DNA from: Geobacter sulfurreducens PCA
GTDB lineage: Bacteria; Desulfobacterota; Desulfuromonadia; Geobacterales; Geobacteraceae
Assembly (NCBI RefSeq): GCF_000007985.2
Contig: NC_002939.5
Span: 3,270,001-3,302,000, forward strand
Reading direction: 5' to 3'
DNA length: 32,000 nucleotides
Under the pieces are notes generated by a model, which saw nothing but the letters and a program-made list of their open reading frames with translations, had not been told where the DNA came from and did not search any database. Positions 369-27,110 of this stretch are shown here, in pieces; position 1 is the stretch's first letter; every line of letters starts with the position of its first letter. Position numbers and translations under genes: made by a program.

Positions 369-626
369 TTACTTGCTTTCGAGCTGCTGCCGGTACTTTT
401 CCAGACACTCCATGGAGCAGAAGTGGAGGCGCTCCCCCTCGTGACGACCAATGACGGCATCCTCCTCCGTCACATAGACGCCGCAGACCGGGTCCTGATA
501 GGTCTCCTCCCGGACCGGCTCGGGCGGCGCAGGCTCGTCCTTCTTCTTGTCGGAGACGAAGCCCTTGACGATTTTGTATCCCACGTAGATGAGGACAGCC
601 CAGACGAGCAGACGCATAAGTCCCAC
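369..626 (-). CDS. Small membrane-anchored TRASH/YHS-type metal-binding domain protein
   Basis: 85 aa with an N-terminal hydrophobic helix ([15 protein letters not shown]). The C-terminal C-x21-C-x3-C pattern (CGVYV...LHFCSMEC) fits the TRASH motif. GTG start has AGGAG 6 nt upstream, overlapping the folK stop. Confidence 0.7.
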
Positions 627-1187: not shown

Positions 1188-1607
1188 TCAGTGCAACTCC
1201 TCGCCGGTGGTGGTCATGACCAGCTTGCCGTGCTTAACCCCCTTCACGCCGATGAGCTCGTCGGCGATCTTCTTCACCTCCCGGGCCTTGCCGCGCACCA
1301 CCAGGACCTCCAGACAGTTGTGGGCATCCAGATGGACGTGGAGGGCCGAGATGACCTTGTCGTGGTGAGCGTGTTGCTGTTCGGTCAACTTATCGGAAAG
1401 GTCGCGGACATGGTGATCGTAGACGAGCGTCACCGTACCCACGGTCTCCTCGTCTCCCACTTCCCACTTCAGCTCCACCAATGCCGCGCGGATCAGGTCG
1501 CGGATCGCTTCGGAGCGGTTCATGTACCCCTTCTCCTCGATGAGCCCGTCAAAGCTCTCCAGCAGCTTCTCGTCGATGGATACGCCGAATCTGATGGTTT
1601 CTCCCAT
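1188..1607 (-). CDS. nikR: Nickel-responsive transcriptional regulator NikR (ribbon-helix-helix + ACT-like metal-binding domain)
   Basis: I take the ATG at 1607 ([20 protein letters not shown]...), which gives a canonical RHH N-terminus and has GGAG 6 nt upstream. HVHLDAHNC matches the HxHx5C high-affinity Ni site of NikR. The track's longer ORF to 1712 adds a non-homologous extension. Confidence 0.9.
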
Positions 1608-1708
1608 AGAACACTCCGATGCGGGGATGCGAACAGCACAAAAACGGATGAAATGATAGACCACTTTCAACGGGAGATAAACAGAAAACCGCCGTAGTGG
1701 GTGCCCGG

Positions 1709-2578
1709 TCACTTCTCCGTGAGCCGGAAGGTGATAGGCACCTCGAAGGTGAGCTCCTCGCCGCCGAGTTCAGGCGGCACGGCGGGGAAGCGGCCCACTG
1801 TGCGGACGGCCCGCAGCGCCGCGTTGTCCAGGAGCGCGTGGCTCGAGGAACGGGCCACCTCATCGCGCCGGACGGCTCCGCTGCGGGCCAGGACCACGCG
1901 TACGACGGCTGTTCCCTCCATCCGTCCCCGACGGGCCAGGGGCGGATATTCCTTGCACCGCTCGATGAGCCCCCTGAGGACGGACTGGTAACCCACGCGG
2001 ATCCGGCCGGCATCGGCCGCACCGGTGGAGGCTGCCGGGGGTTCGGGGCTGCGGACTGTCGGCACCGTTACCTGCGGACCATCGCCCCGTGCCTGCGGCA
2101 CTGCCGCCTGAACCGGTTGTGGGGGAGCCACGGGTACCATCATGGCGGAAGGTGAGGGAGCCATCGCACCTGCCGGATCTGCGGCAAGGGGGGCAATGGC
2201 AGGGGCTGTCGGCTGCGTCCGGCCGGATGGTGGCGACAACGCGACAGGGGGCGACGAGTCCCGTACCGGCGACGGCTTCACCGGCAGCGGAAGTGGGGGC
2301 CGCCGGACAGGCGAAGGTTGCGGCAGAGGCAAAAGGGCCGGTACCGGCTTCTCCGCAGACAGGACCGAACCACCCAGCTCAACGACGATGATGTTGGCAG
2401 GAGGAAGCCGCGTGCCCCCCCCAGCCGGCATCATCACACACACTGCAGCCGCCACATGGGCCACCCCTGACAGGAGGAACGCACGGGCCAGAATCCGCCG
2501 CTCCCCGGCGGAGGCACGCAATGCCTCCGCCGGGGCGTGATCGGGTGTGGCCGCGCTGAACCGCATGGCGCTGCCCAT
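1709..2578 (-). CDS. tonB: TonB-family energy transducer
   Basis: 289 aa. It has an N-terminal TM helix, a long Pro-rich spacer ([21 protein letters not shown]...) and a C-terminal TonB domain ([20 protein letters not shown]...[11 protein letters not shown]...). It starts 5 nt after the TBDT stop. Confidence 0.85.
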
Positions 2579-2583
2579 GTCCG

Positions 2584-4683
2584 TCAGAACCGGTAAGCCA
2601 GGGTCAGGTAGTAGTTTCTCCCGTTCTCCGGCACCTTGGCCCCGGTGCTGAAGGGATCCCGCTGGTAGGAAAGATGGGATAAATAGTACTTGTCGAACAG
2701 GTTGTTGACCCCGGCGTAGACCGAAAGGCCCCCATAGGTGAAACCCCCCTTCAGGTCAGTGGTGAACCAGCCGGCGGTCTCCTGCTCCTGGAGGGCGGCG
2801 TCGACCCGATCCTGCCGGTCGGCGAAGTTCTCGGCCACCTCCAGAAACCAGGAATCCACGTCGTAGCGCAGGGCCATGGTGCCCCGCAGGGGCGGGATCT
2901 CGGACAGGGGACGGTCATCACTCTCGTTGTTCCCCCTCGTGTAGGACAGGGATGCCTTCAGGAAGAAGTTGGCTGGCAGCGAGAACTGGGAGCCGAATTC
3001 CCCACCCCAGAGAGTGGCGTTCACATTGCGGTAGCTGCGGGCACGCAGAAGCGGCCCGGCGCCGTCGGGGTCGGGAAGATCGGTCACATTGATGTAGTTA
3101 TGGAGATAACCGTAGAAGAAAGAAGCATTCACGTAGTAGCTGTCCGTCGCATACTTGACCCCCACGTCGCCCTGATTGTTGACGGTGGGCTCCAGGAGCG
3201 GGTTGCCGACCCAGTTGCTCCCCATCCGCTGAAGCCCCGTGTAGAGCTCCTGGGGGTCAGGGGTACGGATGCCGCGGCCGAAGCCGGCGAACAGTTCAAG
3301 CCCCGTGATCGGCGTCCAGGTAAGCTGGAGGTTGCCGCTGGCCTCGCCGAAGTCGGTGTCGGCGGAGAGAGTACGACCCGGGTAGTAGGGCTGATAGAGC
3401 GTGGCAATGCGCCCGGCGGTAAGCCGGTCGGCCTCAGCCCTGGTCAGGTCTCCTCGCGCGGCCGCCGTGAGTTTGAGGCGTTCCGCCAGGGGCACCGTGT
3501 ACTCCAGGAACATGCCGGTGTTGTGGATGGTCACGTCGGGAATCATGGGGGAATCCCCATAGACCCAATCCGTGCCGTTGCGCATGAGCATGGTGTTGGT
3601 GGCGTCCCACCCGCGATTGTAGTAGTCGATGCCCGCCTTGAGGGTGCCGGAGCCCACTGCCAGGGAGGTGTTCATCTTCGCACCCCAGGTCTCCGTCTCG
3701 GCCAGGGTCGACATAAAGTAGTTCCGCGTCAGGAACGTCCGGTACATGAGGGCGGCATTGTCGGGATTTGAGGTCTCCCGGTACCGGTCGTCCATGAGAT
3801 GCTTGACCCGGTTCCAGTATGCCTGGAGCTTCACTTCGCTCACCAGGGGCGAAAGTTTCTCGATCCTGTAGCTCCAGTTGAACCGGTGGGTCCGGTCATA
3901 GTCGGCGTCCATGAGGAGATAGGGATAAAGGACATGATCGGCATCCTGGTAGGAGTAGGAAAACTCGGTCCGGGAATTATCCGTCGGGTTGATGCCGAAG
4001 CGCGCCCAGCCGGTGTTGATCTCGTAGGCGGTCGAATCGATGCTGCCGGGGCGGTAGCGGTTGTTGCTGGTGGCTGGGTATATCTCGGTTATCCGCTTGC
4101 CATCACCCGACTCGGGCGGTTTGGAATACTTGTAGGCGTATCCCAGGAGGCCATCGAGACGGTCAGTTCCATAGGATGCGGTGCCCGAGGCATTGATGCT
4201 GTCATAGGAGCCGTAGGTGAACGACAGATCGCTGCCGAACCCCTTTTTAGGCTTCTTTCCCACGGCGTCTACCAGGCCGCCGAGACTGCCGGCGTTTTCA
4301 ACATCATAGGGGCCCTTCACGATCCGGATCTGCTCGACCTCGGCGAAGTCGAAGTGGAACGCGGGCGAATCCATTCTGTTGGGACAGGCGCCGTAGAGGC
4401 GGACCCCGTCGATAAGGACGTTGATGTTGTCACGCTGGAGCCCGCGGATAACCACGTCATTGGCAATGGCTCCCTTGCGGACGTAGGAAAGCCCCTCCAC
4501 CTGGCGGAGGGCCTCCCCCATGTCCCGGGCCGGGCTTTCGCGGACTTCGCGGATGGTCAGACTCTCTTCGCGCGGGGACTCTTTCTGGCCCCGGACAACG
4601 ATTTCGTCGAGGATGAGGTTTTCGGCAGCCGCCGGCACGGCGGCCGCAAGAGTGCAGCAGAGCATGGATATGATAGTTCGCAT
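2584..4683 (-). CDS. TonB-dependent outer-membrane transporter, OprC/NosA-like, with a Cys/Met/His/Met candidate metal site
   Basis: ATG at 4683 with GGAG 7 nt upstream. Signal peptide MRTIISMLCCTLAAAVPAAA, TonB box LDEIVVRG, plug motif RGLQRDNINVLIDGVRLYGACPNRMD, and KHLMD about 195 aa downstream. Beta-barrel ending ...LTLAYRF with a terminal Phe. Confidence 0.9.
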   Translation of the reverse strand: MRTIISMLCCTLAAAVPAAAENLILDEIVVRGQKESPREESLTIREVRESPARDMGEALRQVEGLSYVRKGAIANDVVIRGLQRDNINVLIDGVRLYGACPNRMDSPAFHFDFAEVEQIRIVKGPYDVENAGSLGGLVDAVGKKPKKGFGSDLSFTYGSYDSINASGTASYGTDRLDGLLGYAYKYSKPPESGDGKRITEIYPATSNNRYRPGSIDSTAYEINTGWARFGINPTDNSRTEFSYSYQDADHVLYPYLLMDADYDRTHRFNWSYRIEKLSPLVSEVKLQAYWNRVKHLMDDRYRETSNPDNAALMYRTFLTRNYFMSTLAETETWGAKMNTSLAVGSGTLKAGIDYYNRGWDATNTMLMRNGTDWVYGDSPMIPDVTIHNTGMFLEYTVPLAERLKLTAAARGDLTRAEADRLTAGRIATLYQPYYPGRTLSADTDFGEASGNLQLTWTPITGLELFAGFGRGIRTPDPQELYTGLQRMGSNWVGNPLLEPTVNNQGDVGVKYATDSYYVNASFFYGYLHNYINVTDLPDPDGAGPLLRARSYRNVNATLWGGEFGSQFSLPANFFLKASLSYTRGNNESDDRPLSEIPPLRGTMALRYDVDSWFLEVAENFADRQDRVDAALQEQETAGWFTTDLKGGFTYGGLSVYAGVNNLFDKYYLSHLSYQRDPFSTGAKVPENGRNYYLTLAYRF

Positions 4684-5015
4684 GACATATCTCCGTGAAT
4701 GGATAGACGTAGAGGACGCAAGGATGCCGCTGCAGGCACCCCGCCCCGCGCGACGGCGTACGGATAGACCGCAGCCGTACCGGCACACAGTCCGCGTCGG
4801 GGATACGATGAACGGCCGCCGGCCGCTCCCTGTTGGGAAACGCTGCAGCCGCTCACGATAGGAGCAGGTCTGATGTCTCGCTTGGTTGGCCCTTGGAAGT
4901 AATGTGAGGCATTTTGCCTGCTGCCAAGGCGCGGCGACACAGACCTGGCCCAGCCATAACGACGGCAGCAGTCAAAAGGGGCACAATTACGAGGAAGAAC
5001 CAACCAATCGGGACA
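4684..5015 (-). other. Long (332 nt) non-coding, highly structured leader/intergenic RNA region between the Cys-rich gene and the TBDT gene
   Basis: No credible ORF. Nested complementary segments lie at 4865-4872/4940-4947 (8 bp), 4891-4896/4924-4929 (6 bp) and 4907-4911/4915-4919 (hairpin). Further GC-rich hairpins lie between 4700 and 4850. Confidence 0.3.
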
Positions 5016-5465
5016 CTAGGCTTCTGGAGGAGGGATGGAGGGCTCGGGCCGGAAAGCGGTCAGCATGCCCGAATAGGACGAGAGGTTGACGGTACACCGG
5101 GTAACCCCGGCCTCAAGGATGAACAGAGGGGGAATGCACTCCCACTTGATGAGAGGGACGGCGGCTGGGGAAAGGGGATCGCGGTTACAACAACCGCAGG
5201 AGATAACGGGCACTTCCTCACCCGTTGAGCAACAGTCGGGTTCCTTCTTATGGCGATTGGCCGCGCAGGAGCCTTCGCACCGACACTCCTGGGCCATGCC
5301 GGCCATGGCGGCGCAGCACTCGCCGTCGGTGCAGTGACACCCCGCCTTTTTCACGAAACCGGCCTGTGCCCCGGCAACGGCATGAATGAGCGGCACGACC
5401 TGGACGAACAGAACGAGGAGCAGCTGCAGTGATGCGATGGCGATGGTAGTGCGTCTAGTGCCCAT
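5016..5465 (-). CDS. Cys-rich, N-terminally anchored/secreted small protein (hypothetical; candidate periplasmic metal-binding partner of the TBDT)
   Basis: ATG at 5465 gives 149 aa. It has a hydrophobic N-terminal segment (IAIASLQLLLVLFVQVVPLI) and 14 Cys. Twelve of them fall within about 50 residues as CxC, CC, CxCxxxC, CC and CxCC clusters. It sits co-directionally upstream of TBDT-tonB-nikR. Confidence 0.6.
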   Translation of the reverse strand: MGTRRTTIAIASLQLLLVLFVQVVPLIHAVAGAQAGFVKKAGCHCTDGECCAAMAGMAQECRCEGSCAANRHKKEPDCCSTGEEVPVISCGCCNRDPLSPAAVPLIKWECIPPLFILEAGVTRCTVNLSSYSGMLTAFRPEPSIPPPEA

Positions 5466-5531
5466 GTAGGAACGTCCGGCCTTGAAACAAGGCAAAATGT
5501 CGGCGCAATCCAAGCGATCAACAGTCACGTA

Positions 5532-5559
5532 ACAATACTGGACCTCACTCAATTGTCAA
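5532..5559 (-). promoter_or_regulatory. Sigma70-like promoter (TTGACA-16 nt-TATTGT) overlapped by the inverted repeat ACAAT-N15-ATTGT, upstream of the Cys-rich gene
   Basis: The minus strand reads TTGACAattgagtgaggtccagTATTGT. The -35 is at plus 5554-5559 and the -10 at 5532-5537. The repeat arms are at 5532-5536 and 5552-5556. Confidence 0.4.
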
Positions 5560-5594
5560 GCAGCATGCAACCGTGCGTGCCACTCCTGCGGCCA

Positions 5595-6413
5595 TTACCG
5601 CCGCAGCCTCCGCAGGGTAAAGGCAAGGGCGAAAGCCAGGAAGTTGATCATGATAATTGTGGCGCCGGTGGGAAGGTTGGCCAGGAAGGAGACCACCACC
5701 CCGGTCACCACCGACAGGACGCCGAAGACGACAGCAAGGATGATGGCGGTCCGAAAGCCCCGCGCCAGCTGGAGCGAGGCCACTGCGGGCAGGATGAGGA
5801 GTGCGGAGATGAGCATGACCCCCACCACCTTCATGGCGAGCACCACCGTGAGGCCGGTCAGCAGCACCAGCACCCCGTTGATCCGGTCTACCCGGATGCC
5901 GGAGGTACGGGCCAGCTCCTCATCGAAGGTGATGGCGAAGAGTTCCCGGGAAAAGAGCCCCACCGCGATGACCACCACCAGAAAGAGAATCCCGGTCTGA
6001 ACCAGCTCAGAGGGGCTGATGGACAGGATGTTGCCGAAAAGGTAGCTGAACAGGTCAACATTGAATCCGCCCGCCATACTTGCCAGCATGATGCCGGTGG
6101 CAATGCCCAGGGACGAGACGATGCCGATGGCGGCATCGCCGTAGATGCGGGCCCGCTCAGCAAGGCGCAGGATGCCCAGAGCCGAAAGGAGCACGCAGGG
6201 AATGGCGGCCAGGGCCGCGTGGACCGACGGCAGACGGAAGAAGAGTGAAAGGGCCACGCTTCCGAAGGTCACATGGGCAAGTCCGTCACCGATAAGCGAC
6301 AGGCGGCGCAGCACCAGGAAGATGCCCAGGATGGCGCAGAGCGCTGCGATAAGCGACCCGGCAACCATGGCCCGCAGAAGAAACCCGTACTGGAAGATGT
6401 CGAGAAGCGTCAT
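5595..6413 (-). CDS. znuB: Zinc (metal) ABC transporter permease
   Basis: 272 aa polytopic membrane protein of the ZnuB/MntB type (FLLRAMVAGSLIAALCAILGIFLVLRRLSLIGDGLAHVTFG). Lies downstream of znuA and znuC. Confidence 0.85.
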   Translation of the reverse strand: MTLLDIFQYGFLLRAMVAGSLIAALCAILGIFLVLRRLSLIGDGLAHVTFGSVALSLFFRLPSVHAALAAIPCVLLSALGILRLAERARIYGDAAIGIVSSLGIATGIMLASMAGGFNVDLFSYLFGNILSISPSELVQTGILFLVVVIAVGLFSRELFAITFDEELARTSGIRVDRINGVLVLLTGLTVVLAMKVVGVMLISALLILPAVASLQLARGFRTAIILAVVFGVLSVVTGVVVSFLANLPTGATIIMINFLAFALAFTLRRLRR

Positions 6414-6427
6414 GGAAACCGCCCCCC

Positions 6428-7180
6428 TCAGTGCCGGTGGCAGATGAGGTGCTGGGAATGAATGCCGAAAAAGTCGGACATGGCCTGGGAGCCGCAGAAT
6501 TCGTCGAACCCGCCGTAGAAAACCACCCGCTTGTCCAGGTAGAGGAAACGGGAGGCATGACTGCCGATGGTGCCGCTGTCGTGGGTTACCAGGATGACGG
6601 TGGTACCCCGGGAACGGTTCAGGTCGCGGATGGTCTGGTAGAAGCTCTCCCGCGTCTCCGGGTCCAGGGCCGTGGTCGGCTCGTCCAGCACCAGCAGCTC
6701 GGGTCCGCTGACCAGCGCCCGGGCCAGGAGCGCCCGCTGCCGCAGCCCGCCGGACAGTTCTCCCACCAGCCGGTCCCTTATGGATTCAATCCCCATGAGT
6801 TCCAGGGCATGGGTCACCGCAGCACCGTCACCGGAACGGGGACGGCGGGGAAAGCGGCGTCCCGCCAGCAGGCCGAGCCCCACCACCTCGGCCACGGTGG
6901 CCGGGAAGTGGGGATTGAAATACTGGAGGCCCTGGGGAAGATAGCCGACCCGCTGCCACTGGTCGAAACCGGCCAGAGGGGTGCCGAAGAGACGAATTTC
7001 ACCCCGGTCGGGGCGGGCGAGCCCCAGGATGCAGCGGATGAGAGTGCTTTTCCCCGACCCGTTGGGCCCCACGATGCCGACGTAGTCCCCCGCCGCCACG
7101 GCAAAGGAGACGTCGGTCAACGCCTCGGTCCCCTGGTATCCCAGCGTCACCCCCGTGACCGCTACCGCATCTACCGGCAT
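6428..7180 (-). CDS. znuC: Zinc (metal) ABC transporter ATP-binding protein
   Basis: 250 aa with Walker A GPNGSGKST, signature LSGGLRQR and Walker B LLVLDEP. Overlaps the znuA 3' end by 10 nt. Confidence 0.85.
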   Translation of the reverse strand: MPVDAVAVTGVTLGYQGTEALTDVSFAVAAGDYVGIVGPNGSGKSTLIRCILGLARPDRGEIRLFGTPLAGFDQWQRVGYLPQGLQYFNPHFPATVAEVVGLGLLAGRRFPRRPRSGDGAAVTHALELMGIESIRDRLVGELSGGLRQRALLARALVSGPELLVLDEPTTALDPETRESFYQTIRDLNRSRGTTVILVTHDSGTIGSHASRFLYLDKRVVFYGGFDEFCGSQAMSDFFGIHSQHLICHRH

Positions 7181-8151
7181 TGAAGCCCCTTTCGCAGATT
7201 CTCCAGGTTCTTTTCCATGAGAGAAATGAACGTGACTCCCCGCGCCAAGTCATCGCGGCTTACGGTGTGGGCGCCGTTGAGCGGCAGGATGGCCGCCCCC
7301 GTCTCCCGGGCGATGGTCTCGGCGGTACGGGGATCGATGAGTTCCTCGGTATAGATAGTGCGGACCCCTTCTGTTCGGATCCGCTTCACCAGGGCCGCCA
7401 GCTTGGCCGGGGTCGGTTCCGCATCGGCGGAGGCGGCAAAGGCGGCCTCGTAGCGCAGGCCGTAACGGGCGGCAAGGTAGCCGAAAGCAAAGTGTCCCCC
7501 GTGAACCACGGTCCGCGAGGAGCAGGACGCGAGCCCCTGCCGATAGCGTTCATCCAGGTGGGCCAGCTTTGCCTTGTAGGCGGCGGCATTGGCCAGGTAG
7601 GCCTCCCGGTTGGCAGGGTCGCGCTCGGCCATCCCTGCAGCGATGTTGTCCACCATCCGCTGGGCGTTGGCGAAGTCGAGCCAGAGGTGAGGATCCATCC
7701 GCGTCTCATCGTGCGGCCCGTCATGGTGATCACCTTCGTTGTGATGATCTCCGTGCTCATGGATCCCCGCAGCAGCGAGCAGTCGGGCGCCGCGGCTCGC
7801 ATCCACCACCGTGGGTCCGCCGCCCCCGACACCCTTGAGAATGTCCGCGGCCCAGGGCTCCATGGCGCGGTTCGTATAGACGAATAGGCTTGCCCGGCTC
7901 ACACGGACGATATCCTCGGGCCGGGGTTCGAAACTGTGAGGCTCCATCCCCGGCGGAAGGAGGAGCGTCACCTCGGCCCGATCGCCGGCCACGTTGCGGG
8001 CAAAATCATAGAGCGGAAAAAGCGTCGTCACCACCGACATGCCGGCGTGCGCCGCCGGAGTCCTGCCCTCATCCTTTTTCGAGCATCCGACCAGAACGAT
8101 CGCCAGGGCGCACAGCACTCCCAGCGCCAGGATACGCACGCTTCCCATCAT
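7171..8151 (-). CDS. znuA: Zinc ABC transporter periplasmic solute-binding lipoprotein
   Basis: 326 aa. Lipoprotein signal with lipobox LVGC. The His/Asp-rich loop HEHGDHHNEGDHHDGPHDE is typical of ZnuA. It starts immediately after the zur stop. Confidence 0.85.
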   Translation of the reverse strand: MMGSVRILALGVLCALAIVLVGCSKKDEGRTPAAHAGMSVVTTLFPLYDFARNVAGDRAEVTLLLPPGMEPHSFEPRPEDIVRVSRASLFVYTNRAMEPWAADILKGVGGGGPTVVDASRGARLLAAAGIHEHGDHHNEGDHHDGPHDETRMDPHLWLDFANAQRMVDNIAAGMAERDPANREAYLANAAAYKAKLAHLDERYRQGLASCSSRTVVHGGHFAFGYLAARYGLRYEAAFAASADAEPTPAKLAALVKRIRTEGVRTIYTEELIDPRTAETIARETGAAILPLNGAHTVSRDDLARGVTFISLMEKNLENLRKGLQCR

Positions 8152-8571
8152 TCATCCCCCCTGCTGCCGCGCCAGGCACTCGCGGCAATAACCGTTGGCC
8201 TGGAAAATATGCGACACGACCCGCCCGGCCACGAGTTTCTCCAGATCCGGCAGTGCGCAGACGTCAACCTCCTCCACCCGTCGGCACGAGAGGCAGACGA
8301 AGTGGTGGTGATGCTCGCGACGGTCGCAGTAATAGTAGTAAAGCTGCCGGTTCGGATGAATGATGGTGGTTATCACCCCGCCGGCGGCCAGTTCCTCAAG
8401 ATTTCGGTAGACCGTGGGGAGCCCCACCCGGTCGAAACGGAGCTTCAGCTTGCGCCAGACCTCCTCGGGGCTCGCATACCCCTCCTCGCCGGCAAGAATG
8501 TCGAGCACGGCACGCCGCTTGGGGGTAATGCGGAGGTTGAGGTCCCTGAGAAGATCGTCAAAGTGCTTCAT
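8152..8571 (-). CDS. zur: Fur-family zinc uptake regulator
   Basis: ATG at 8571 gives 139 aa (MKHFDDLLRDLNLRITPKRRAVLDIL...). Winged-helix N-terminus, HHHHFVCLSC and CRECL (two CxxC pairs). It is the first gene of the znu operon. The track's 358-aa ORF is an upstream read-through artefact. Confidence 0.85.
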   Translation of the reverse strand: MKHFDDLLRDLNLRITPKRRAVLDILAGEEGYASPEEVWRKLKLRFDRVGLPTVYRNLEELAAGGVITTIIHPNRQLYYYYCDRREHHHHFVCLSCRRVEEVDVCALPDLEKLVAGRVVSHIFQANGYCRECLARQQGG

Positions 8572-8590
8572 GGTCAGGAGGTTTCCTGTT

Positions 8591-8611
8591 AAACAGAAAT
8601 CATTTCCATTT
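8591..8611. promoter_or_regulatory. Candidate Zur box: 10-1-10 imperfect palindrome AAACAGAAAT-c-ATTTCCATTT (perfect core GAAATcATTTC at 8596-8606)
   Basis: AT-rich palindrome, 8 of 10 arm positions complementary. It sits 20-40 nt upstream of the zur ATG and directly downstream of the predicted -10. Confidence 0.5.
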
Positions 8612-8639
8612 AAAATACCCCCGTGCCGCTGTTTGTCAA
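8612..8639 (-). promoter_or_regulatory. Sigma70-like promoter for zur-znuACB (TTGACA-16 nt-TATTTT)
   Basis: The minus strand reads cctcTTGACAaacagcggcacgggggTATTTTaaatgg. The -35 is at plus 8634-8639 and the -10 at 8612-8617. Confidence 0.4.
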
Positions 8640-11712: not shown

Positions 11713-12671
11713 GGACGCTCCAGGACAAAAAGGTAGCACAACATGAACCCCGTCAGCAGGATCTCGGAGCCGTACATGAGCCGGACGGCGCCGCGCCATG
11801 CCGTGCGATCGAGAGGGTTCAGGGGATCGCCGATGGTCGGTTTCGCCACCGGCCGGCCAAAGTAGACATTCATGCCGCCGAGGCGCACCCCAAGGGCTCC
11901 GGCCGCGGCAGCCTCGGGGATGCCGGCGTTGGGGGAGGAATGGTTGCGGCCGTCCCGGCGCATGATCCGCCAGGCGCCCGGCCCGGAAAGTCCCGCCAGC
12001 GGGGCGGACAGCACCATGAGCAGGCCGGTGATCCTGGCCGGCAGCAGGTTCACCAGATCGTCGAACCGTGCCGAAGCCCAGCCGAAATGAAGATACCGCT
12101 CGTTTTTGTACCCGACCATGGAATCGAGAGTGTTTACCGCCTTGTAGGCGAGCGCCAGCGGGGCCCCGCCGATCATGAACCAGAACAGGGGGGCGATCAC
12201 GCCGTCGGAGGTGTTTTCGGCCACGGTCTCCACGACGCCGCGCCAGATCTCCGGCTCGGTGAGTTCCGCGGTATCGCGCCCTACGATGCGGGAAAGGAAA
12301 AAGCGCGCCTCGGCGAGATCGCCGGCGGCCAAGGCATCCGCCACGAGCTTCGACTCCCCGTGGAGCGAGCGGGCAGCCAGACAGGTCCAGCCCAACAGCG
12401 CCTCTACCGCGAACCCGGCCACGGGGTGCACCAGTCCGGCGCCCAGAACGAGCAGCCAGGCGGTGCCCCCGGTGATCCCGACGGTCAGAACCAGCAGAAT
12501 CACACCTGCTGCTCGCTCGTTCGTCACCAGGCGGCGGAGTTGCCGTTCAAGGGCGGTCACAAGCCTGCCCACGGCCACCACCGGATGGGGGAGCCAGCGA
12601 GGATCGCCCAGCAGCCAGTCGAGAACAAGGGCGGCAAGGACCAGCAGGGCCACCCGGTCAGGGCCGGTCAC
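11709..12671 (-). CDS. cbiB: Adenosylcobinamide-phosphate synthase
   Basis: 320 aa membrane protein. LLGDPRWLPHPVVAVGRLV and SPNAGIPEAAAAGALGVRLGG are typical of CbiB/CobD. Its GTG start overlaps the kinase stop (GTGA). Confidence 0.9.
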   Translation of the reverse strand: MTGPDRVALLVLAALVLDWLLGDPRWLPHPVVAVGRLVTALERQLRRLVTNERAAGVILLVLTVGITGGTAWLLVLGAGLVHPVAGFAVEALLGWTCLAARSLHGESKLVADALAAGDLAEARFFLSRIVGRDTAELTEPEIWRGVVETVAENTSDGVIAPLFWFMIGGAPLALAYKAVNTLDSMVGYKNERYLHFGWASARFDDLVNLLPARITGLLMVLSAPLAGLSGPGAWRIMRRDGRNHSSPNAGIPEAAAAGALGVRLGGMNVYFGRPVAKPTIGDPLNPLDRTAWRGAVRLMYGSEILLTGFMLCYLFVLERP

Positions 12672-14701
12672 GCGCTCTCCTCCGGCTGTGGCGGCACAAC
12701 CACCGGCAGCGGCGTTTCGTTGAGCGTAAAGAAGAACGTGGCACCCCGGTCCACGGCACCTTCGGCCCAGGTGCGGCCACCGTGCCGGCGGATCACCCGA
12801 GCCACGGTGGCGAGGCCGACGCCGGTCCCCGGGAACTGCTCGGCTGCATGCAGCCGGCTGAAGGGTCGGAAGAGACGATTGATCTCCTCCGGATCGAATC
12901 CCGCACCGTTATCGCGGACAAAGTAAATCCGCCGATCCCCCTCGTCCCGGGACCCGAACTCGATGACGGCTTCATCCCTGATGGCCGTGTACTTCCACGC
13001 GTTGCTGAGCAGGTTCTCCACCGCAAGGCCCAGCAGGTCCATGTCCCCATCCACAGTCAGATCGCCCGCCACCTGGAAGCCTACCTTCCGTTGCGGCTCG
13101 GCGAATTGGAGGTTATCTATCACGGCCTGACCTATTTCCGCCATGTCCACCGGCTCGAGGTTCAACTCCTTGCAGGTGGCGCGGGCAAGGGCGAGCTGCG
13201 CGTCGACGAGGGCGTTCATCCTTGCCGTGGCAAGCTCAATGGCCGTGAATAAATCCGGCAGCAGCTCGCTCTCGGTGCCGTCGCATTCGGCGCGCGCCAG
13301 TTGCACGTAGCCGGCGATGCTCGACAGGGGCGTTCGGATATCATGGCTCAGGGATGAACTGAATTGCCTCAGATCCTCGTTCGCCTCTTCCAGCTGGACG
13401 GTCCGGTCGTACACTCGCTGCTCCAGAAGCCGGGCGAACGAGTCCAGGTCGCGTCGGGATTTCTGGAGGCGCTCCACCATGGTGTTGAAGGAGACGGCAA
13501 GGGCGCCCAGCTCGTCCGAACGCCGGGCATCGAGCCGGTGGGAGAAATCCCCTTCGGCAATGGCCGAGGTACCGGCCATGAGCGAATCCAGGGCCCGGAG
13601 AACGGACCGGCTCGTTCCGAGGATGAGGCTCACCGCCATCACCAGGAAGAGCGAAACGGCAAGAACGCCCTGCCAGCGGGCCGCGGCGGTCAGGGTGAGC
13701 ATCTGGGCACTGCCCGAATCCAGCGATCGGGAAATGATGGGCATGAGCGTCTTGTAGAGAACCGCCTCCATGCGGGAGTTGGCCAGAGCCACCGCCTCAT
13801 GCCCGCGCCCAGCCCTTTTGAGCGCCACGGCCTGATGCATGAGCCCGGTCAGCTCCTGGAAGCTCCGTGTAACGGTCTCAGCGTCCTTCAATGCCGTCGG
13901 GTCACCCTGGCGTGCCAGGCTCCACATCTGCTGCCGGAAATTCTCCAGGGCATGGCCGGCCTGCCAGTCCAGCCGCGAAAGATCGGTCTCGATGCCCTGG
14001 CGCTGGTTGAGCAGATACTTCATCAGCTCCTTGAGCTGCCCGGTCACCTCGAACAGCAGGTGGTTGGCGGCAAGAAAGCCGTCCAGGGCCGCTTCGCCCC
14101 GCTCGATGTTCCGGACTCCCTCCGCGGACATCCAGGGGATCCGCCCCACGGCCATTAATAGATTGTGAAAGGCGACGTGCACCTCCACCGCTCCGTCATC
14201 GAGGGCCTTGTCCACGGGCAGGAGCACCTCCCGATCGAAATAGGGCTCAAGCCGATCGCGGAACAGCGCCATCGCCTCATCGCCGCGGCCCGCGTCCTGG
14301 AGCTCAAAAAACCATTCGGCCGTGCGAACCCATGAGGCATAGCGGGTCTGCACCTCCTGGACCAGTTCAAGATCGTCGTCCTCGCCGGCAACGCCCAGCG
14401 CCCTCTGCGCCTTGATGGCATCGATCCAGACGGAAAAGGACTCATCGGCCAACTGGCCGCCCTTGCGGAATTCATCCCGGGCGGCAGGATCGGAGATGGC
14501 CAGATAATCGACCACCTCCTTCATCTGCTGAATCATGCCGGCCCGGGCCAGGGCAATGCCCCTCAGGTATTCGACCGCCGGGATGAGATGGCGCACCCGC
14601 GTATGGACCTGGGCCGACGAGTGAAACAGGTATCCCACGAACACTGCAACATGTATTGCGATCAGGATGATGACGATTTGCACTTTCCGTTTTATGGTCA
14701 C
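12668..14701 (-). CDS. Sensor histidine kinase (TM - ~300-aa helical extracytoplasmic domain - TM - HAMP - HisKA - HATPase_c); no response regulator nearby
   Basis: 677 aa. H-box SLSHDIRTPLSSI, N-box LLSNAWKYT, G-boxes DNGAGF and GTGVGLA, and a HAMP segment (IAEGDFSHRLDARRSDELGALAVSFNTM). GTG start has GGAGA 8 nt upstream. Confidence 0.9.
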   Translation of the reverse strand: MTIKRKVQIVIILIAIHVAVFVGYLFHSSAQVHTRVRHLIPAVEYLRGIALARAGMIQQMKEVVDYLAISDPAARDEFRKGGQLADESFSVWIDAIKAQRALGVAGEDDDLELVQEVQTRYASWVRTAEWFFELQDAGRGDEAMALFRDRLEPYFDREVLLPVDKALDDGAVEVHVAFHNLLMAVGRIPWMSAEGVRNIERGEAALDGFLAANHLLFEVTGQLKELMKYLLNQRQGIETDLSRLDWQAGHALENFRQQMWSLARQGDPTALKDAETVTRSFQELTGLMHQAVALKRAGRGHEAVALANSRMEAVLYKTLMPIISRSLDSGSAQMLTLTAAARWQGVLAVSLFLVMAVSLILGTSRSVLRALDSLMAGTSAIAEGDFSHRLDARRSDELGALAVSFNTMVERLQKSRRDLDSFARLLEQRVYDRTVQLEEANEDLRQFSSSLSHDIRTPLSSIAGYVQLARAECDGTESELLPDLFTAIELATARMNALVDAQLALARATCKELNLEPVDMAEIGQAVIDNLQFAEPQRKVGFQVAGDLTVDGDMDLLGLAVENLLSNAWKYTAIRDEAVIEFGSRDEGDRRIYFVRDNGAGFDPEEINRLFRPFSRLHAAEQFPGTGVGLATVARVIRRHGGRTWAEGAVDRGATFFFTLNETPLPVVVPPQPEESA

Positions 14702-14725: not shown

Positions 14726-17116
14726 CTACTCCGGCAACATCCCGCCGAGGCCGCAGAGTTCCAGCATGCGATCAATGTTCAGATGCTTCTCCAGGTGCGC
14801 GGCAAGCAGGTTGAAGGGATCGTCGCCCCCCTGTCCGGGCCGGCGCTCCGCCAACCCCTTCGCCTTGCGCAGCCGGTTGAGGAGCGAGGTGCGAAACACG
14901 GCATTGTCGAAGATACCGTGCAGGTAGGTGCCGAACACGCGGCCGTCACTGGAGACGGCGCCGTCCAGCACCTCCACCGGCGCGCCGGAACGGCTCGTGA
15001 TCCGGGCAAAGGGACGGACCGACGGGCCGAGGATCGTCTCTCCCATGTGGATTTCATAGCCGGCCAGCCCCCCCCGGCAGCGGGGCGCCACCAGGAACCC
15101 CGACGGCAGCAGCTCGGCCGCGGCCCGATGGGTGGATTTCTGCTCCAGCATCACCGTGACCACGTCCAGCAGCCCGAGCCCCTCGGCCTCGCGGATGTCG
15201 GACTCCACTGCATGGGGATCGGCAACCCGCTTGCCGAGCATCTGGTACCCGCCGCAGATGCCCACGATGGGGCCGGTGAACGATTGTATCGCCGGAAACA
15301 ATCCCCGCTCCATGAGAAAGAAGAGATCGGTGGTGGTCGCCTTGCTCCCCGGGATAACGAGGAGATCGAGTCCTCGCAGCTGCTCTTCACCCTCCACATA
15401 CGTGAGCTGGACATCCGGCTCCGCCTCCAGGGCGTCGAAATCGGTGTAGTTGGAGATGCGTGACAGCTTCACCACGCCGATGTTCAGCCGATCTGCCGCC
15501 GGGCCCCGATCGCCGTTTTCCGCTTTCCGCTTTTCCAGGGCCACGCTGTCTTCCTCGGGAAGACGGAAGCCGCTGAAACAGGGCACCACTCCCAAAACAG
15601 GCACACCGGTGCGCTCCTCAATGAAACCGATGCCCGGCGCCAGGAGCGATGCATCCCCCCGGAACTTGTTGATGATCACGCCGGCGATCCGCTCCCGCTC
15701 ATGGGGCTCCAGAAGCTCCAGGGTACCGACGATCTGGGCGAACACCCCGCCACGGTCTATGTCCGCCACCAGCACGGCCTTGCAGCCAGCCATCTCCGCC
15801 ACCTTCAGGTTGGCGATGTCATGGCGCTTCAGGTTGATCTCGGCGATGCTGCCGGCCCCCTCGATCACCACCAGGTCATGGCCGGCGGCGAGTCGCCCGA
15901 AGCTCTCGCGCGCCTTCTCGAAGGCGGTGGGCTTGTAGTCGTTGTATTCCCGAACCGTCATGTTCCCCACCACCGCCCCCTGGACGATCACCTGGCTGCC
16001 GCAGTCGGTGGTCGGCTTAAGGAGTATGGGGTTCATGTCGGTGTGGGGCTCGATGCCGCAGGCCTCCGCCTGCACCGCCTGGGCCCGGCCGATCTCTCCG
16101 CCTTCCGGTGTAACGGCCGAGTTGAGGGCCATGTTCTGGGACTTGAACGGCGCCACGGAGAAGCCCCGGTTTTTCATGATGCGGCAGATACCGGCCGTAA
16201 CAACCGACTTCCCCACGTCGGAGGCAGTGCCGACGACCATCAGGGACCGGGAATGTGAAGCCGGGGACCCGGGATCGGGAATCGGGGACCGGGAATTCAA
16301 AATCCGAGACGGAGAATCGGACAACTGTCCATCGACTGAGTTCTTTTGCTGTTCCCCGGCCCCTGGTCCCTCGGCCCCGGGCCCGGCCTTATAGCCCCGC
16401 GGCGTAACCATCCGGCCCTCCCGATCCACGAAGGTGGCGGAGTTGCCGATGATGACCAGGGAAAACATGTCGATCTCATGGTCGAGCATTGACGCCAGGG
16501 TGGTCACAACCCGGGTCTCCCCTTCCCGGCAGGCGTTGCGGACAATGCCGACCGGCGTGGTGGAGGCGCGGGCCGCCAGCAGGATCGTCCGGGCCTCCTC
16601 GATCTGCGTGACCCGCCCCTTGCTCCGGGGGTTGTAGAGGGCAACCACGAAGTCGGCGGCCGCGGCGGCCACGAGCCGGCGCTCGATGACATCCCAGGGG
16701 GTCAGGAGATCCGACAGGGAGATGACTGCAAAATCGTGCATCAGCGGCGCGCCGAGAACGGAAGCAGCCGCCTGCACCGCCGACACTCCCGGCACCACCA
16801 CGATCTCGGGGGGGGCTGTCATCGTGGCCGCAAGCTCCATGGCCAGCCCAGCCATGCCGTAGACCCCCGCGTCGCCGCTGGAGACCAGCGCCACGGTTTT
16901 GCCCGCCGCAGCGGCATCCAGGGCCTCGCGGCAGCGGTCAACCTCCTTCATCATCCCCGAGGAGACAACCTCCTTGCCGTCAAGCAGGGGCTCGATGAAC
17001 CCCAGGTAGGTCTTGTAGCCTACCACCACCTGGGCCCGCTCGATGGCTTCGGTGGCGTGGAACGTCATATGGTCGAGGTCGCCGGGACCGATCCCGACGA
17101 CGTAGAGTATGGACAT
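14726..17116 (-). CDS. cbiH/cbiP: Fusion protein: cobalt-factor III / precorrin-3B C17-methyltransferase (CbiH) joined by a ~50-aa low-complexity linker to cobyric acid synthase (CbiP/CobQ)
   Basis: ATG at 17116 with GAGG 6 nt upstream. The N-terminal ~240 aa are MSILYVVGIGPGDLDHMT...SSGDAGVYGMAG (tetrapyrrole methylase). The linker is GPGAEGPGAGEQQKNSVDGQLSDSPSRILNSRSPIPDPGSPASHSRS. The CbiP part follows: LMVVGTASDVGKSVVTAGICRIM...GICGGYQMLG (GATase). It is one uninterrupted frame. Confidence 0.85.
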   Translation of the reverse strand: MSILYVVGIGPGDLDHMTFHATEAIERAQVVVGYKTYLGFIEPLLDGKEVVSSGMMKEVDRCREALDAAAAGKTVALVSSGDAGVYGMAGLAMELAATMTAPPEIVVVPGVSAVQAAASVLGAPLMHDFAVISLSDLLTPWDVIERRLVAAAAADFVVALYNPRSKGRVTQIEEARTILLAARASTTPVGIVRNACREGETRVVTTLASMLDHEIDMFSLVIIGNSATFVDREGRMVTPRGYKAGPGAEGPGAGEQQKNSVDGQLSDSPSRILNSRSPIPDPGSPASHSRSLMVVGTASDVGKSVVTAGICRIMKNRGFSVAPFKSQNMALNSAVTPEGGEIGRAQAVQAEACGIEPHTDMNPILLKPTTDCGSQVIVQGAVVGNMTVREYNDYKPTAFEKARESFGRLAAGHDLVVIEGAGSIAEINLKRHDIANLKVAEMAGCKAVLVADIDRGGVFAQIVGTLELLEPHERERIAGVIINKFRGDASLLAPGIGFIEERTGVPVLGVVPCFSGFRLPEEDSVALEKRKAENGDRGPAADRLNIGVVKLSRISNYTDFDALEAEPDVQLTYVEGEEQLRGLDLLVIPGSKATTTDLFFLMERGLFPAIQSFTGPIVGICGGYQMLGKRVADPHAVESDIREAEGLGLLDVVTVMLEQKSTHRAAAELLPSGFLVAPRCRGGLAGYEIHMGETILGPSVRPFARITSRSGAPVEVLDGAVSSDGRVFGTYLHGIFDNAVFRTSLLNRLRKAKGLAERRPGQGGDDPFNLLAAHLEKHLNIDRMLELCGLGGMLPE
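16243..16317. repeat. Degenerate 12-nt tandem-like repeat (GGGACCGGGAAT x2 exact, plus GGGATCGGGAAT and GAGACGGAGAAT) inside the CbiH-CbiP linker coding region
   Basis: Exact copies at 16243-16254 and 16285-16296. Variants at 16271-16282 and 16306-16317. Confidence 0.5.
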
Positions 17117-17129
17117 CACAAACCTCGTA

Positions 17130-23672: not shown

Positions 23673-24512
23673 TCAACTCCTTGTGGTTTCCATCAATTCC
23701 ATGATTTCCCGCCGGGCCTCGCCGATGGTGAGGGGCGTGCGCCGGAACGGGACACCATCTTCGTGCTTCAGGCGGTGGATGAGCTCGGCTATGTGGGGAA
23801 GCCGCAGCTTGACGCTCTCCATCTCGGCCGGAGCGGTGAAGACCTCCTCGGGCGGCCCGCCGCGAACGATCCGCCCCCGGCTCAGGATGTAGAGCCGGTG
23901 AAGGAACAGGGGCACCAGATCGACGCTGTGGGTCGCCATGACGATGGTCACCCCCTCCTGGCGGTTGAGCCGCGTGAGCAGCTCCATCATCCGGTACTCT
24001 CCCATGGGATCGAGGCCGGCGGTGGGTTCGTCCATGAGGAGCACCTCATGCCCCATGGCCAGGAGCCCTGCGATGCAGGCGCGCTTTTTCTGGCCGTAGC
24101 TCAGGTGGTGGATCTGCTTGGCCGCGGCGCCCGCCAGGTCGACGGCTTCCAGGGCCCGCTCCACCCGCGCCTTGACCTCGGCCTCGGCAAATCCCATGTT
24201 GCGGGGGCCGAAGGCCACATCCTCGAAGACCGTGTGGGCGAACAACTGATCGTCCGGGTTCTGGAACACGAGCCCGACCGTGCGGTAGATATCCTTCGGC
24301 TGGAGGCTCCGCACGTCCCGGCCGTCCAGGAGCACGCTGCCGTCGTACTCCCTGATCAGCCCGTCCATGATCTTGAGCAGTGTCGTCTTGCCCGAGCCGT
24401 TGGAGCCGAGGATGCCGCAAAATTCTCCCCGCGCCACCTGGAAACGGATATCCGACAGGGCCACGGTACCGTCGGGATAGGCATAGGCCTTCAGGTCCAC
24501 GGAAAACCTCAC
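23673..24512 (-). CDS. cbiO: Cobalt ECF transporter ATPase component
   Basis: 279 aa with Walker A GSNGSGKTT, signature LSYGQKKR and Walker B LLMDEP. The GTG start overlaps the cbiQ stop (GTGA). Confidence 0.9.
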   Translation of the reverse strand: MRFSVDLKAYAYPDGTVALSDIRFQVARGEFCGILGSNGSGKTTLLKIMDGLIREYDGSVLLDGRDVRSLQPKDIYRTVGLVFQNPDDQLFAHTVFEDVAFGPRNMGFAEAEVKARVERALEAVDLAGAAAKQIHHLSYGQKKRACIAGLLAMGHEVLLMDEPTAGLDPMGEYRMMELLTRLNRQEGVTIVMATHSVDLVPLFLHRLYILSRGRIVRGGPPEEVFTAPAEMESVKLRLPHIAELIHRLKHEDGVPFRRTPLTIGEARREIMELMETTRS

Positions 24513-25264
24513 TGCATCCCCCAGAGGGTTCCCATGGCCACCACGAAGAGGGCGGACAGAGCCACCTCGGCCGGCCGGAACGGACGGTGCCTGAACAGCG
24601 GCAGGTTCCCGTCGTACCCCCTCTGAACCATGGCGGTGGTAATGGTCTGGCTGTTGTCGAAGGCCTTAAGAACCAGGGCGCCGGCCAAGGTGCCGAAGGA
24701 GCGCATCCCCCGGCGCAGCCCGCTGTAGCCCAGGCGATTCCGCTGGGCCGCGTGGATCACCTGGGCGTCGTCCAGGAGCAGGAACAGGTAGCGCCAGGCG
24801 AACAGCGCCACCTCGATGAAGCTGCGCGGCACCCGCAGCCATGCCAGGGCCGCCATCAGGTCGGTGAACGAGGAGGAGAAGCCGACCGCCGATACAACCG
24901 ACACGGCGGCGGCAATGCGGCCGGCGATGAGGAGCCCTTCCCGCAGTCCCTCCCGGTATGCGGTAAGCTCCAGCCAGGGCAGCTGGAGTGTGAAAAGCGG
25001 CGTGACGCCGCTGAAGAAAAGCTTGAGCAGGAGGACCACGGCGGCGATGAACGCCGGTTCCGCAAAGCGGAGCAGGATCAGGCGGAGCGGCACCCCCAAC
25101 GAGACGACGATCCCCAGGGAGAGGATCGCCGCCAGCAGCGGGAACAGCCCGCCGGTGCAGCTGATGACCATGGCGAGCAGTGCCCCGGCCGTCAGGAGCT
25201 TGACCCGCGGGTCGAGCCGCGACAGGGGATGATCGGCCGGAGACGCGCTGAGGACGTGCTTCAT
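24509..25264 (-). CDS. cbiQ: Cobalt ECF transporter transmembrane (T) component
   Basis: 251 aa polytopic protein. LDPRVKLL near the N-terminus and the AQRNRLGY region are typical of CbiQ/EcfT. Its ATG overlaps the upstream ORF stop (ATGA). Confidence 0.85.
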   Translation of the reverse strand: MKHVLSASPADHPLSRLDPRVKLLTAGALLAMVISCTGGLFPLLAAILSLGIVVSLGVPLRLILLRFAEPAFIAAVVLLLKLFFSGVTPLFTLQLPWLELTAYREGLREGLLIAGRIAAAVSVVSAVGFSSSFTDLMAALAWLRVPRSFIEVALFAWRYLFLLLDDAQVIHAAQRNRLGYSGLRRGMRSFGTLAGALVLKAFDNSQTITTAMVQRGYDGNLPLFRHRPFRPAEVALSALFVVAMGTLWGMQ

Positions 25265-25776
25265 TCGGCAATTCCCTTCGCCGCCATGTAGTCGCGAAGC
25301 CGGTTGGCATGATCGCGGTCATCATTGTTCAACGTCTGAAACACCTTGAGGGTCCAGGAGGGAGCCCGGCTCTCCATGGCCCGCTGAAAGTGGAGCTCCC
25401 CCGCCGACTCCTCAAGGACGAGAGCGGTCCTGAAGGCTTCCTCCCGGCTGGGAGGGGTCTGTTCGTAACGGTCGAACAGGGTCTCCAGCTCCCGGTTCTT
25501 CTCCACCAGGGGTTCGAGGGATTCGGGCAGGAGCTCCCGGGGGAACCTCCCCTCGGGCAGGAAAAGGCGGCGACCGTTTCGCAGGAGGTTCGCGTGGTTC
25601 TCCTCCTCGATGGAAAGCGTCTGCCAGAACTCACCGTCATCGGGAAAGAGGTCCTGGAACAGGGCGTAGAGCCGGGATGCGTTGAGCTCCAGCGCGATCG
25701 CCTCGTTCACGAGCCGCACCAGCTCTTCAATCTCGCGGTCATTGCCCTGGACCCAGGAGGTTTCAAGTATGGTCAT
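25261..25776 (-). CDS. Ferritin-like / rubrerythrin-like four-helix-bundle protein (hypothetical) embedded in cbiMNQO
   Basis: ATG at 25776 with GGAG 8 nt upstream gives 171 aa. There are two E...(about 30 aa)...[E/D]xxH pairs: ALELNAS...EEENHANLL and LVLEESAGE...DDRDHANRL. It overlaps the cbiMN 3' end by 14 nt and cbiQ by ATGA. The upstream part of the track's 270-aa ORF is antisense-frame noise inside cbiMN. Confidence 0.65.
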   Translation of the reverse strand: MTILETSWVQGNDREIEELVRLVNEAIALELNASRLYALFQDLFPDDGEFWQTLSIEEENHANLLRNGRRLFLPEGRFPRELLPESLEPLVEKNRELETLFDRYEQTPPSREEAFRTALVLEESAGELHFQRAMESRAPSWTLKVFQTLNNDDRDHANRLRDYMAAKGIAE

Positions 25777-26803: not shown

Positions 26804-26929
26804 TGCGTGCTCCCTATGAAGTTATGATCCGTCGCCGTTCTTGCCCTCGCGTGCCGGAACGACCTCATAGCCGCAGTGGATATGCTCTGCTCCCCATACA
26901 ACCTCCCTTCCCCTCGGTCGGAGTGTGTT

Positions 26930-27085
26930 GTCGCCTTCCAGCCAGGTCTCCTGGCTCGGGGATCATCCCGCCTGCCGCGCCTTCCCGTCCCTTCGGACAG
27001 TGGCATCACTGCGGCATCGGTCCCCCCTCACAGTTGCGGGGCAGCACCGGTATTGCACCGGTTTCCCTTACGCCGGAAGGATGCT
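26930..27085 (-). promoter_or_regulatory. Cobalamin (AdoCbl) riboswitch upstream of cbiMN
   Basis: The minus strand reads TAAGGGAAACCGGTGCAATACCGGTGCTGCCCCGCAACTGTGAGG...GCCACTGTCCGAAGGGACGGGAAGGCG...GAGCCAGGAGACCTGGC. All conserved core blocks are present, including the B12 box (plus 26941-26957). P1 is CCTTCC (27074-27079) paired with GGAAGG (26934-26939). Confidence 0.92.
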
Positions 27086-27110
27086 TCTTCAGATTGAAAC
27101 TGCCTGAGCC

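Follow-up and report, generated by a model that had tools for sequence, protein, structure and literature searches.

To our knowledge, the crossing of the Gram-negative outer membrane by ionic copper is known in detail only for OprC, and we know of no described receiver of the metal on the periplasmic side. OprC (PA3790) of Pseudomonas aeruginosa and NosA of P. stutzeri are TonB-dependent importers of ionic copper that carry a CxxxM-HxM site (PMC8610252). OprC as purified was free of zinc and held no appreciable nickel or iron, and zinc that was added failed to co-elute with the protein (PMC8610252). Related to it is ZnuD, the TonB-dependent, Zur-regulated zinc importer of Neisseria, whose buried metal site is no more than 2.8 Å away from that of OprC (PMC8610252). 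A further comparison is offered by NikR-regulated nickel uptake, for which FrpB4 and FecA3 of Helicobacter and alpha- and beta-proteobacterial transporters predicted by means of NikR boxes are among the examples cited in PMC11247825. Here we describe a cluster of Geobacter sulfurreducens PCA that holds genes for a Cys-rich anchored protein, an OprC-like transporter, a TonB-family protein and NikR, at positions 1188-5559 of a 32,000-nucleotide (nt) stretch of contig NC_002939.5 (3,270,001-3,302,000, forward strand; below, the window). A preliminary description of this DNA had taken the cluster for a NikR-controlled import module for nickel or cobalt.

Open reading frame (ORF) and domain calls placed the four genes co-directionally on the minus strand, as the preliminary description had them, with the promoter-like site that it had noted in front of the first gene. 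In 5' to 3' order the features are:

5532-5559, minus strand: sigma-70-like promoter-like site TTGACA-16-TATTGT, 5' of the Cys-rich gene (consensus scan, 10/12 match)
5016-5465, minus strand: Cys-rich gene, 149 amino acids (aa) from MGTRR (ORF call)
4684-5015, minus strand: untranslated gap of 332 nt between the Cys-rich gene and the transporter gene (ORF coordinates)
2584-4683, minus strand: TonB-dependent transporter of predicted OprC/NosA type, 699 aa (Plug and barrel domains)
1709-2578, minus strand: TonB-family gene, 289 aa (TonB_C domain, S-x3-H in the membrane helix)
1188-1607, minus strand: nikR, 139 aa (NF003381, 240 bits against a cut-off of 105)

We read the first three genes, with a probability of about two in three, as a module of OprC/NosA type for copper uptake across the outer membrane, equipped with a TonB and a thiol-rich partner of its own; nikR and the upstream znuABC genes would be its neighbours. 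By analogy with OprC, copper is most likely the substrate of the transporter.

In a PDB sequence search the top matches of the transporter were all OprC (best 6fok, E 8e-40), the next family following at about E 1e-10. Its two motifs, GAC100PNRM104D in the plug and KH295LM297D in the barrel, stand 195 residues apart from C100 to H295, the spacing of about 195 given earlier, and in the PDB sequence alignment C100, M104, H295 and M297 align residue for residue with OprC C143, M147, H323 and M325. GACPNRMD pairs with an identical OprC segment and KHLMD with OprC DHIMD. M258 aligns with OprC M286, which belongs to the methionine track of OprC and is a ligand of a secondary Ag(I)/Cu(I) site there. 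The resemblance to the Cys/Met/His/Met arrangement of OprC, which the preliminary description had proposed from the motifs, thus extends to exact equivalence of the four ligands in the alignment and to their conservation in homologues. None of the four varies among 42 homologues of about 60% identity. A scan of the protein collection gave at least 600 matches to the transporter family, and 80 species loci were fetched by the plug motif, so that the barrel positions are independent of the selection; the H and M of the barrel were present in 79 of the 80, which come from Geobacter relatives, Aquificota, Acidobacteriota, Nitrospirota, Campylobacterota and Gammaproteobacteria.

Structure prediction agreed with this placement. 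The AlphaFold model has a mean predicted local distance difference test score (pLDDT) of 78 with a confident barrel, and in a Foldseek search with it the 28 best matches were all OprC, with template modelling (TM) scores of 0.71-0.84. Scanned against NCBIfam, as had been proposed for the TonB-copper models, the transporter found its best model in TonB-copper TIGR01778, scoring 258 bits where the equivalog cut-off is 472. By its sequence it belongs to a divergent subfamily of the OprC/NosA family and not to the TIGR01778 equivalog. Like OprC, to which it is closest in both sequence and structure, it combines a plug with a 22-strand barrel and keeps the Met286 equivalent, and the adjacent TonB gene implies TonB dependence. 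The partners differ: OprC shares its operon with the FoxB-like inner-membrane protein PA3789, whereas the window transporter is accompanied by a dedicated TonB and the Cys-rich anchored protein, to which relatives add genes for NosL-like and FtsX/ABC proteins.

From the locus tag and a G. sulfurreducens-type Zur box we take the window transporter to be, in all likelihood, the orthologue of GSU2982. A study of G. soli placed GSU2982 in the copper-receptor family and described its function as not investigated (PMC6013743). The earlier statement that this is not a characterised system therefore holds in part: the transporter family is characterised and GSU2982 has already been named as a copper-receptor homologue (PMC6013743), and the new part here is the unannotated Cys-rich partner family; also of interest is a recurrent NosL/FtsX-ABC context of the OprC-like subfamily in anaerobes.

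The TonB-family protein was matched by TonB_C (E 2.6e-15) and TIGR01352, with LLSGVAHV in its membrane helix and a Pro-rich middle, and its gene starts 5 nt past the stop codon of the transporter. When same-strand neighbours in the 80 loci were grouped by ORF clustering and Pfam, TonB_C proved to be the commonest (11 of 147 downstream and 7 of 126 upstream ORFs), and in about 20 loci the transporter has a TonB gene right beside it. The window TonB was then compared with two others. With the TonB of locus L084, which stands beside a 66%-identical transporter, it shares 48% identity in the C-terminal domain (E 4e-30), as against 32% (E 3e-9) with the TonB that lies 5' of nikR in G. uraniireducens. 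Because it is so much closer to the transporter-linked protein, transporter and TonB are regarded as a conserved pair, which bears out the dedicated TonB of the preliminary description; for the same reason an ancestral pairing of TonB with nikR, an idea raised by the G. uraniireducens arrangement, was ruled out. No ExbB or ExbD was found among the window ORFs scanned, again as the preliminary description had it.

After TonB, the commonest neighbour was NosL (PF05573), in 8 of 147 downstream ORFs and in several Geobacter relatives. NosL is a Cu(I) chaperone for the assembly of nitrous-oxide reductase, and its recurrence beside the transporter in relatives points to copper trafficking. In several Geobacter relatives the gene order runs transporter, NosL, (TonB), NosL, small protein, FtsX permease, ABC ATPase and a 333-aa protein. 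A divergent DeoR-type regulator takes the place of this context in five loci. Genes for two NosL proteins, a protein of about 110 aa, FtsX, the ABC ATPase and the protein of about 333 aa were seen 3' of the transporter in loci L004, L006, L084/L085 and L091; the last protein is without a Pfam match, L084 additionally encodes an FtrD-like membrane protein 3' of the transporter, and the whole NosL/FtsX/ABC module is absent from the window.

The Cys-rich gene was examined as a possible partner. Thirteen ORFs of about 160 aa, all from Geobacter relatives, form a cluster of sequences immediately 5' of the transporter or of the TonB and transporter genes, and a profile built from them covers the whole of the window protein (E 2e-7, 18.5 bits; compositional bias is high). 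The family plan consists of an N-terminal hydrophobic helix, four invariant Cys (C-GDC--CGCSPER-A--TCCC), a CC pair and a C-terminal tail of EPPxPPP type, for which the window protein has PEPSIPPPEA; most members also carry C-CPCG. All 15 profile matches in the 80 loci lie directly 5' of the transporter or of the TonB + transporter unit, and the Cys-rich loci examined are all of Geobacter/Desulfuromonas type. This conservation supports the Cys-rich ORF as a real partner gene, as the preliminary description had treated it.

Searched against a large protein collection, the profile returned 341 proteins, all of them unnamed or 'hypothetical' and none with a Pfam domain. An exhaustive search of 1.84 billion representatives gave 265 clusters at 50% identity, nearly all of 150-220 aa. 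Pfam, NCBIfam, PDB sequence and Foldseek searches with the family gave no match. By its sequence the window protein is thus a divergent representative of a family of membrane-anchored proteins that lacks annotation and goes together with OprC-like transporters. Its AlphaFold model contains a confident membrane helix (residues 6-31) and a small confident Cys-rich domain (about 33-76), the remainder being disordered. The N-terminus is short and positively charged, and under the positive-inside rule for the orientation of membrane proteins this suggests that the Cys-rich part faces the periplasm.

Comparison with G. anodireducens revealed unusual divergence at this gene. The two Cys-rich proteins align without gaps at 59.7% identity, with a synonymous divergence (dS) of 0.74 and a ratio of nonsynonymous to synonymous divergence (dN/dS) of 0.39, against 91-100% identity and dS of 0.10-0.24 in the flanking genes. 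The hot spot comprises the Cys-rich gene and its upstream spacer (5016-5594 of the window against 6210-6772 of locus L081; spacer 63% identical), and the CC pair is lost from the G. anodireducens copy. On these values the gene is under some constraint, and the segment of gene and spacer may have been exchanged by recombination or may be fast-evolving.

In the mechanism that we propose, ionic copper would be captured by the transporter at Cys100 and Met104 in the plug together with His295 and Met297 in the barrel wall. The dedicated TonB would supply the energy and open the plug, presumably using ExbB/ExbD encoded elsewhere. Both steps are put forward because the proteins are homologous to a characterised system. 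The Cys-rich protein, with an inner-membrane anchor and a thiol-rich periplasmic domain, would most likely accept, buffer or pass on Cu(I), a role suggested by its strict gene linkage, topology and composition. NosL and the metal-trafficking proteins of TRASH/YHS type may be comparable to it as periplasmic acceptors, although the Cys-rich protein has neither sequence nor fold similarity to NosL, and the window itself lacks a NosL gene. A more specific proposal, which we offer tentatively and think rather less probable than not, is that the Cys-rich family is a dedicated periplasmic Cu(I) acceptor or relay for the OprC-type importers of Geobacter and Desulfuromonas relatives, handing the metal to NosL-like chaperones or to cuproenzyme assembly. 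NikR would be a housekeeping nickel regulator whose gene was placed downstream in the G. sulfurreducens lineage, possibly receiving read-through from the module and not controlling it.

Transcription signals were scanned over a 9.2-kb region, in which five promoter-like sites were found against 1.4 expected. Both hexamers of the site at 5532-5559 are kept in G. anodireducens, where the remaining intergenic DNA is only 63% identical. The same scan detected no terminator-like site in the 332-nt gap or in the 101-nt gap between the TonB gene and nikR, and either gap could carry a promoter of its own. The 332-nt gap contained no relevant Rfam family at gathering or permissive thresholds; as RNA it folds better than any of 100 shuffled versions (z-score -3.2). 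Compared with G. anodireducens, the final ~75 nt before the start codon are near-identical and the first ~150 nt are missing there. A separate promoter or a leader may lie inside this gap. Inverted repeats were limited to short GC-rich palindromes in the promoter and gap regions, with none 5' of nikR, and inspection by eye of the regions 5' of 14 Cys-rich genes showed no shared operator beyond the promoter hexamers.

The regulator gene itself is, to judge from its sequence, canonical. NikR has RHH_1 and NikR_C domains and its best PDB match is the NikR structure 2bj1 (E 9e-51); the nickel site H90-V-H92-LDAHN-C98 is the HxHx5C motif HVHLDAHNC that the preliminary description had pointed out. 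The protein is about 90% identical across Geobacteraceae, with differing gene contexts. In two further genomes nikR stands alone, near homocitrate-synthase-like and MTHFR genes, and in G. anodireducens MTHFR and VTT-domain genes are close by as well, which places nikR in a syntenic stretch with a varying upstream neighbour. In G. uraniireducens it follows a cluster with ExbB, DUF2149, CobN and TonB genes; this cluster (L088, 1-6420) comprises DUF2162, ExbB, DUF2149, CobN-like (1323 aa) and TonB genes and ends just before nikR. Clusters of this type have reportedly been proposed to serve metal uptake. A tblastn search found nikR beside the transporter in none of the 80 other species loci, the adjacency being confined to the G. 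sulfurreducens/anodireducens clade. The full four-gene order accordingly recurs in G. anodireducens only, where the transporter is 97% identical; of the arrangement whose conservation the preliminary description had wanted checked, the Cys-rich and TonB links are conserved. Judged from gene order, nikR is most likely a lineage-specific neighbour, and no link to the transporter was found.

A search for NikR operators led to the same view. The delta-proteobacterial NikR box is GTGTTAC-N13/14-GTAACAC, and a published genome-wide scan of G. sulfurreducens located a site at nik(MN)QO only (PMC545781). The whole window was searched for it in either orientation, allowing spacers of 13 or 14 nt and no more than three mismatches, and for the E. 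coli-type box too; neither box had an intergenic match. Just one match to the NikR box came up, within the coding sequence of znuC, and 23 of 100 shuffled sequences did as well. At N13/14 spacing the three regulatory regions scored no higher than 8/14, and with spacers of 10-17 nt up to 10/14 positions matched, at wrong spacings only. Two half-site look-alikes in the -10 region, tTGTTAC and GTGACtg, were rejected as an operator because they follow each other without a spacer, whereas the half-sites of NikR operators are two turns apart. As a positive control, the search recovered GTGcTAC-N14-GTAACAC, with one mismatch, 44 nt 5' of nik(MN)QO in L091 (G. uraniireducens type), so it was able to detect real candidate sites. 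This nik(MN)QO operon adjoins a homologous transporter cluster, with an opposite-strand gene between, the sole such case among 92 loci. The operon (904-5259 of L091, box at 833-860) closes with a gene that shares 4 nt with the ATPase gene and encodes an outer-membrane barrel of AlgE-like type (Alginate_exp); a dedicated outer-membrane nickel channel is a possible role for this barrel.

Directly upstream of the module, and co-directional with it, lies a zur-znuABC operon that ends 129 nt 5' of it:

5595-8571, minus strand: zur-znuABC operon (FUR, ZnuA, ABC_tran and ABC-3 domains), with a Zur box at 8590-8612
8152-8571, minus strand: zur, 139 aa (the listed 358-aa ORF is an over-extension)
7171-8151, minus strand: znuA
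6428-7180, minus strand: znuC
5595-6413, minus strand: znuB

The Zur box is an exact copy of the published G. sulfurreducens PCA box TAAATGGAAATGATTTCTGTTTA (PMC545781) and abuts a promoter-like site, TTGACA-16-TATTTT (8639-8612), 5' of zur-znuABC. It is the sole copy in the window, and none was found in front of the transporter module. Downstream of nikR, folK is followed at tight spacing by a gene for an 85-aa membrane-anchored protein (369-626, minus strand) with weak, sub-cut-off matches to YHS and to the PP0621 family and with Cys motifs of the sort that metal-trafficking domains typically have. What remains of the window is taken up by a cobalamin biosynthesis cluster. A cobalamin riboswitch (26923-27122, minus strand, 104 bits) lies 5' of cbiM, cbiQ and cbiO of a cbiMNQO system (genes 23673-26803, minus strand), which indicates that inner-membrane cobalt uptake is already supplied, and under B12 rather than NikR. 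Within the cluster, a sensor kinase with HAMP, HisKA and HATPase domains (12668-14701, minus strand) is encoded between cobD/cbiB and a fused methylase-CobQ-like gene (14726-17119, 797 aa).

With these surroundings in place, other cargoes can be weighed. On the view taken in the preliminary description, NikR would control outer-membrane uptake of nickel or cobalt, with the soft site binding these metals and feeding hydrogenases and cobamide synthesis. In its favour, the TonB gene is followed after 101 nt by a canonical same-strand nikR, and the scan saw no terminator-like site in this gap; the homologous cluster of L091 adjoins nik(MN)QO with its one-mismatch box, and NikR-regulated TonB-dependent nickel transporters such as FrpB4 and FecA3 are cited in PMC11247825. 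The reading keeps some weight, since nikR may be co-transcribed with the module and operators can be atypical. It is nevertheless improbable: the operator is missing from the regulatory regions and the published scan finds nik(MN)QO only (PMC545781), nikR adjacency is not conserved (0/80, with 1/92 for nik(MN)QO), OprC with the same site held no appreciable nickel as purified (PMC8610252), and cobalt entry at the inner membrane is served by cbiMNQO. Neither NikR control nor a nickel or cobalt substrate is thus upheld, and the claimed surprise of a nickel regulator over a copper-type site finds no support; NikR-regulated nickel transporters are set apart from this locus by its lack of an operator, its copper-type site and its unconserved nikR link. 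About equally improbable is a zinc module that would be read through from the Zur-repressed zur-znuABC operon and would provide ZnuD-like uptake with a zinc-binding Cys-rich protein. No terminator-like site separates the two same-strand units, Fur-family and znu genes flank the homologous transporter in L046 and L061, and cysteine-rich proteins often bind zinc. The module, however, has a good promoter-like site of its own and the only Zur box precedes zur; Zur/znu adjacency occurs in just 3 of ~95 loci; and OprC did not bind added zinc (PMC8610252). The ZnuD model NF038289 covers the C-terminal barrel only, at 47 bits against a cut-off of 950; the transporter is related to ZnuD and likewise has a Zur/znuABC locus nearby, but its ligand set differs. 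Two of the four conserved ligands are Met, and methionine ligands suit Cu(I), not Zn(II).

Slightly better placed, though still unlikely, is another kind of cargo, complexed or otherwise thiophilic, such as a copper-chelating small molecule or a soft metal, or a function of the Cys-rich protein as a redox or assembly factor. The divergence of the transporter family from OprC would allow for this, as would a Cys-rich family without recognisable fold or domain, whose central region is predicted to be disordered and is fast-evolving; on the other side stand the conservation of all four ionic-copper ligands and of the methionine-track residue, and a Pfam scan of the neighbours that found no chelator biosynthetic genes in the module or in relatives. 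Several observations weigh against ionic copper as the cargo and are to be set beside this. Identity of the transporter to OprC is just 22-23%, which with the sub-cut-off TIGR01778 score means that metal specificity could have drifted. The plug of the AlphaFold model, including residues 102-108, is at pLDDT below 50, and the NosL gene of the relatives is missing from the window locus. Two nickel-related adjacencies occur in Geobacteraceae, nikR in the window and the NikR-box nik(MN)QO in L091, and NikR could bind a non-canonical operator; by a rough estimate, two such adjacencies in ~95 loci with about a dozen neighbours each are near chance expectation. Zur/znuABC genes, too, stand beside the transporter both in the window and in two Acidobacteria loci, L046 and L061, where a Fur-family gene and a divergent znuCB(A) operon lie 3' of it.

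Copper uptake through the module would fit the needs of the organism, as the heme-copper oxidase and multicopper proteins of G. sulfurreducens require copper (PMC3403914; PMC6013743), the multicopper proteins being those of metal-oxide reduction. The case also corrects a tempting mis-annotation, in that proximity to nikR does not imply a nickel system. For the transporter family, it means that OprC-like proteins of a divergent subfamily, with the four ligands of OprC, have a wide distribution that takes in anaerobes and thermophiles. The Cys-rich protein, for its part, is a testable candidate for the periplasmic hand-off of copper, and a relay of this kind, if it exists, would fill a missing step, namely the fate of copper after its passage through an OprC-type transporter.

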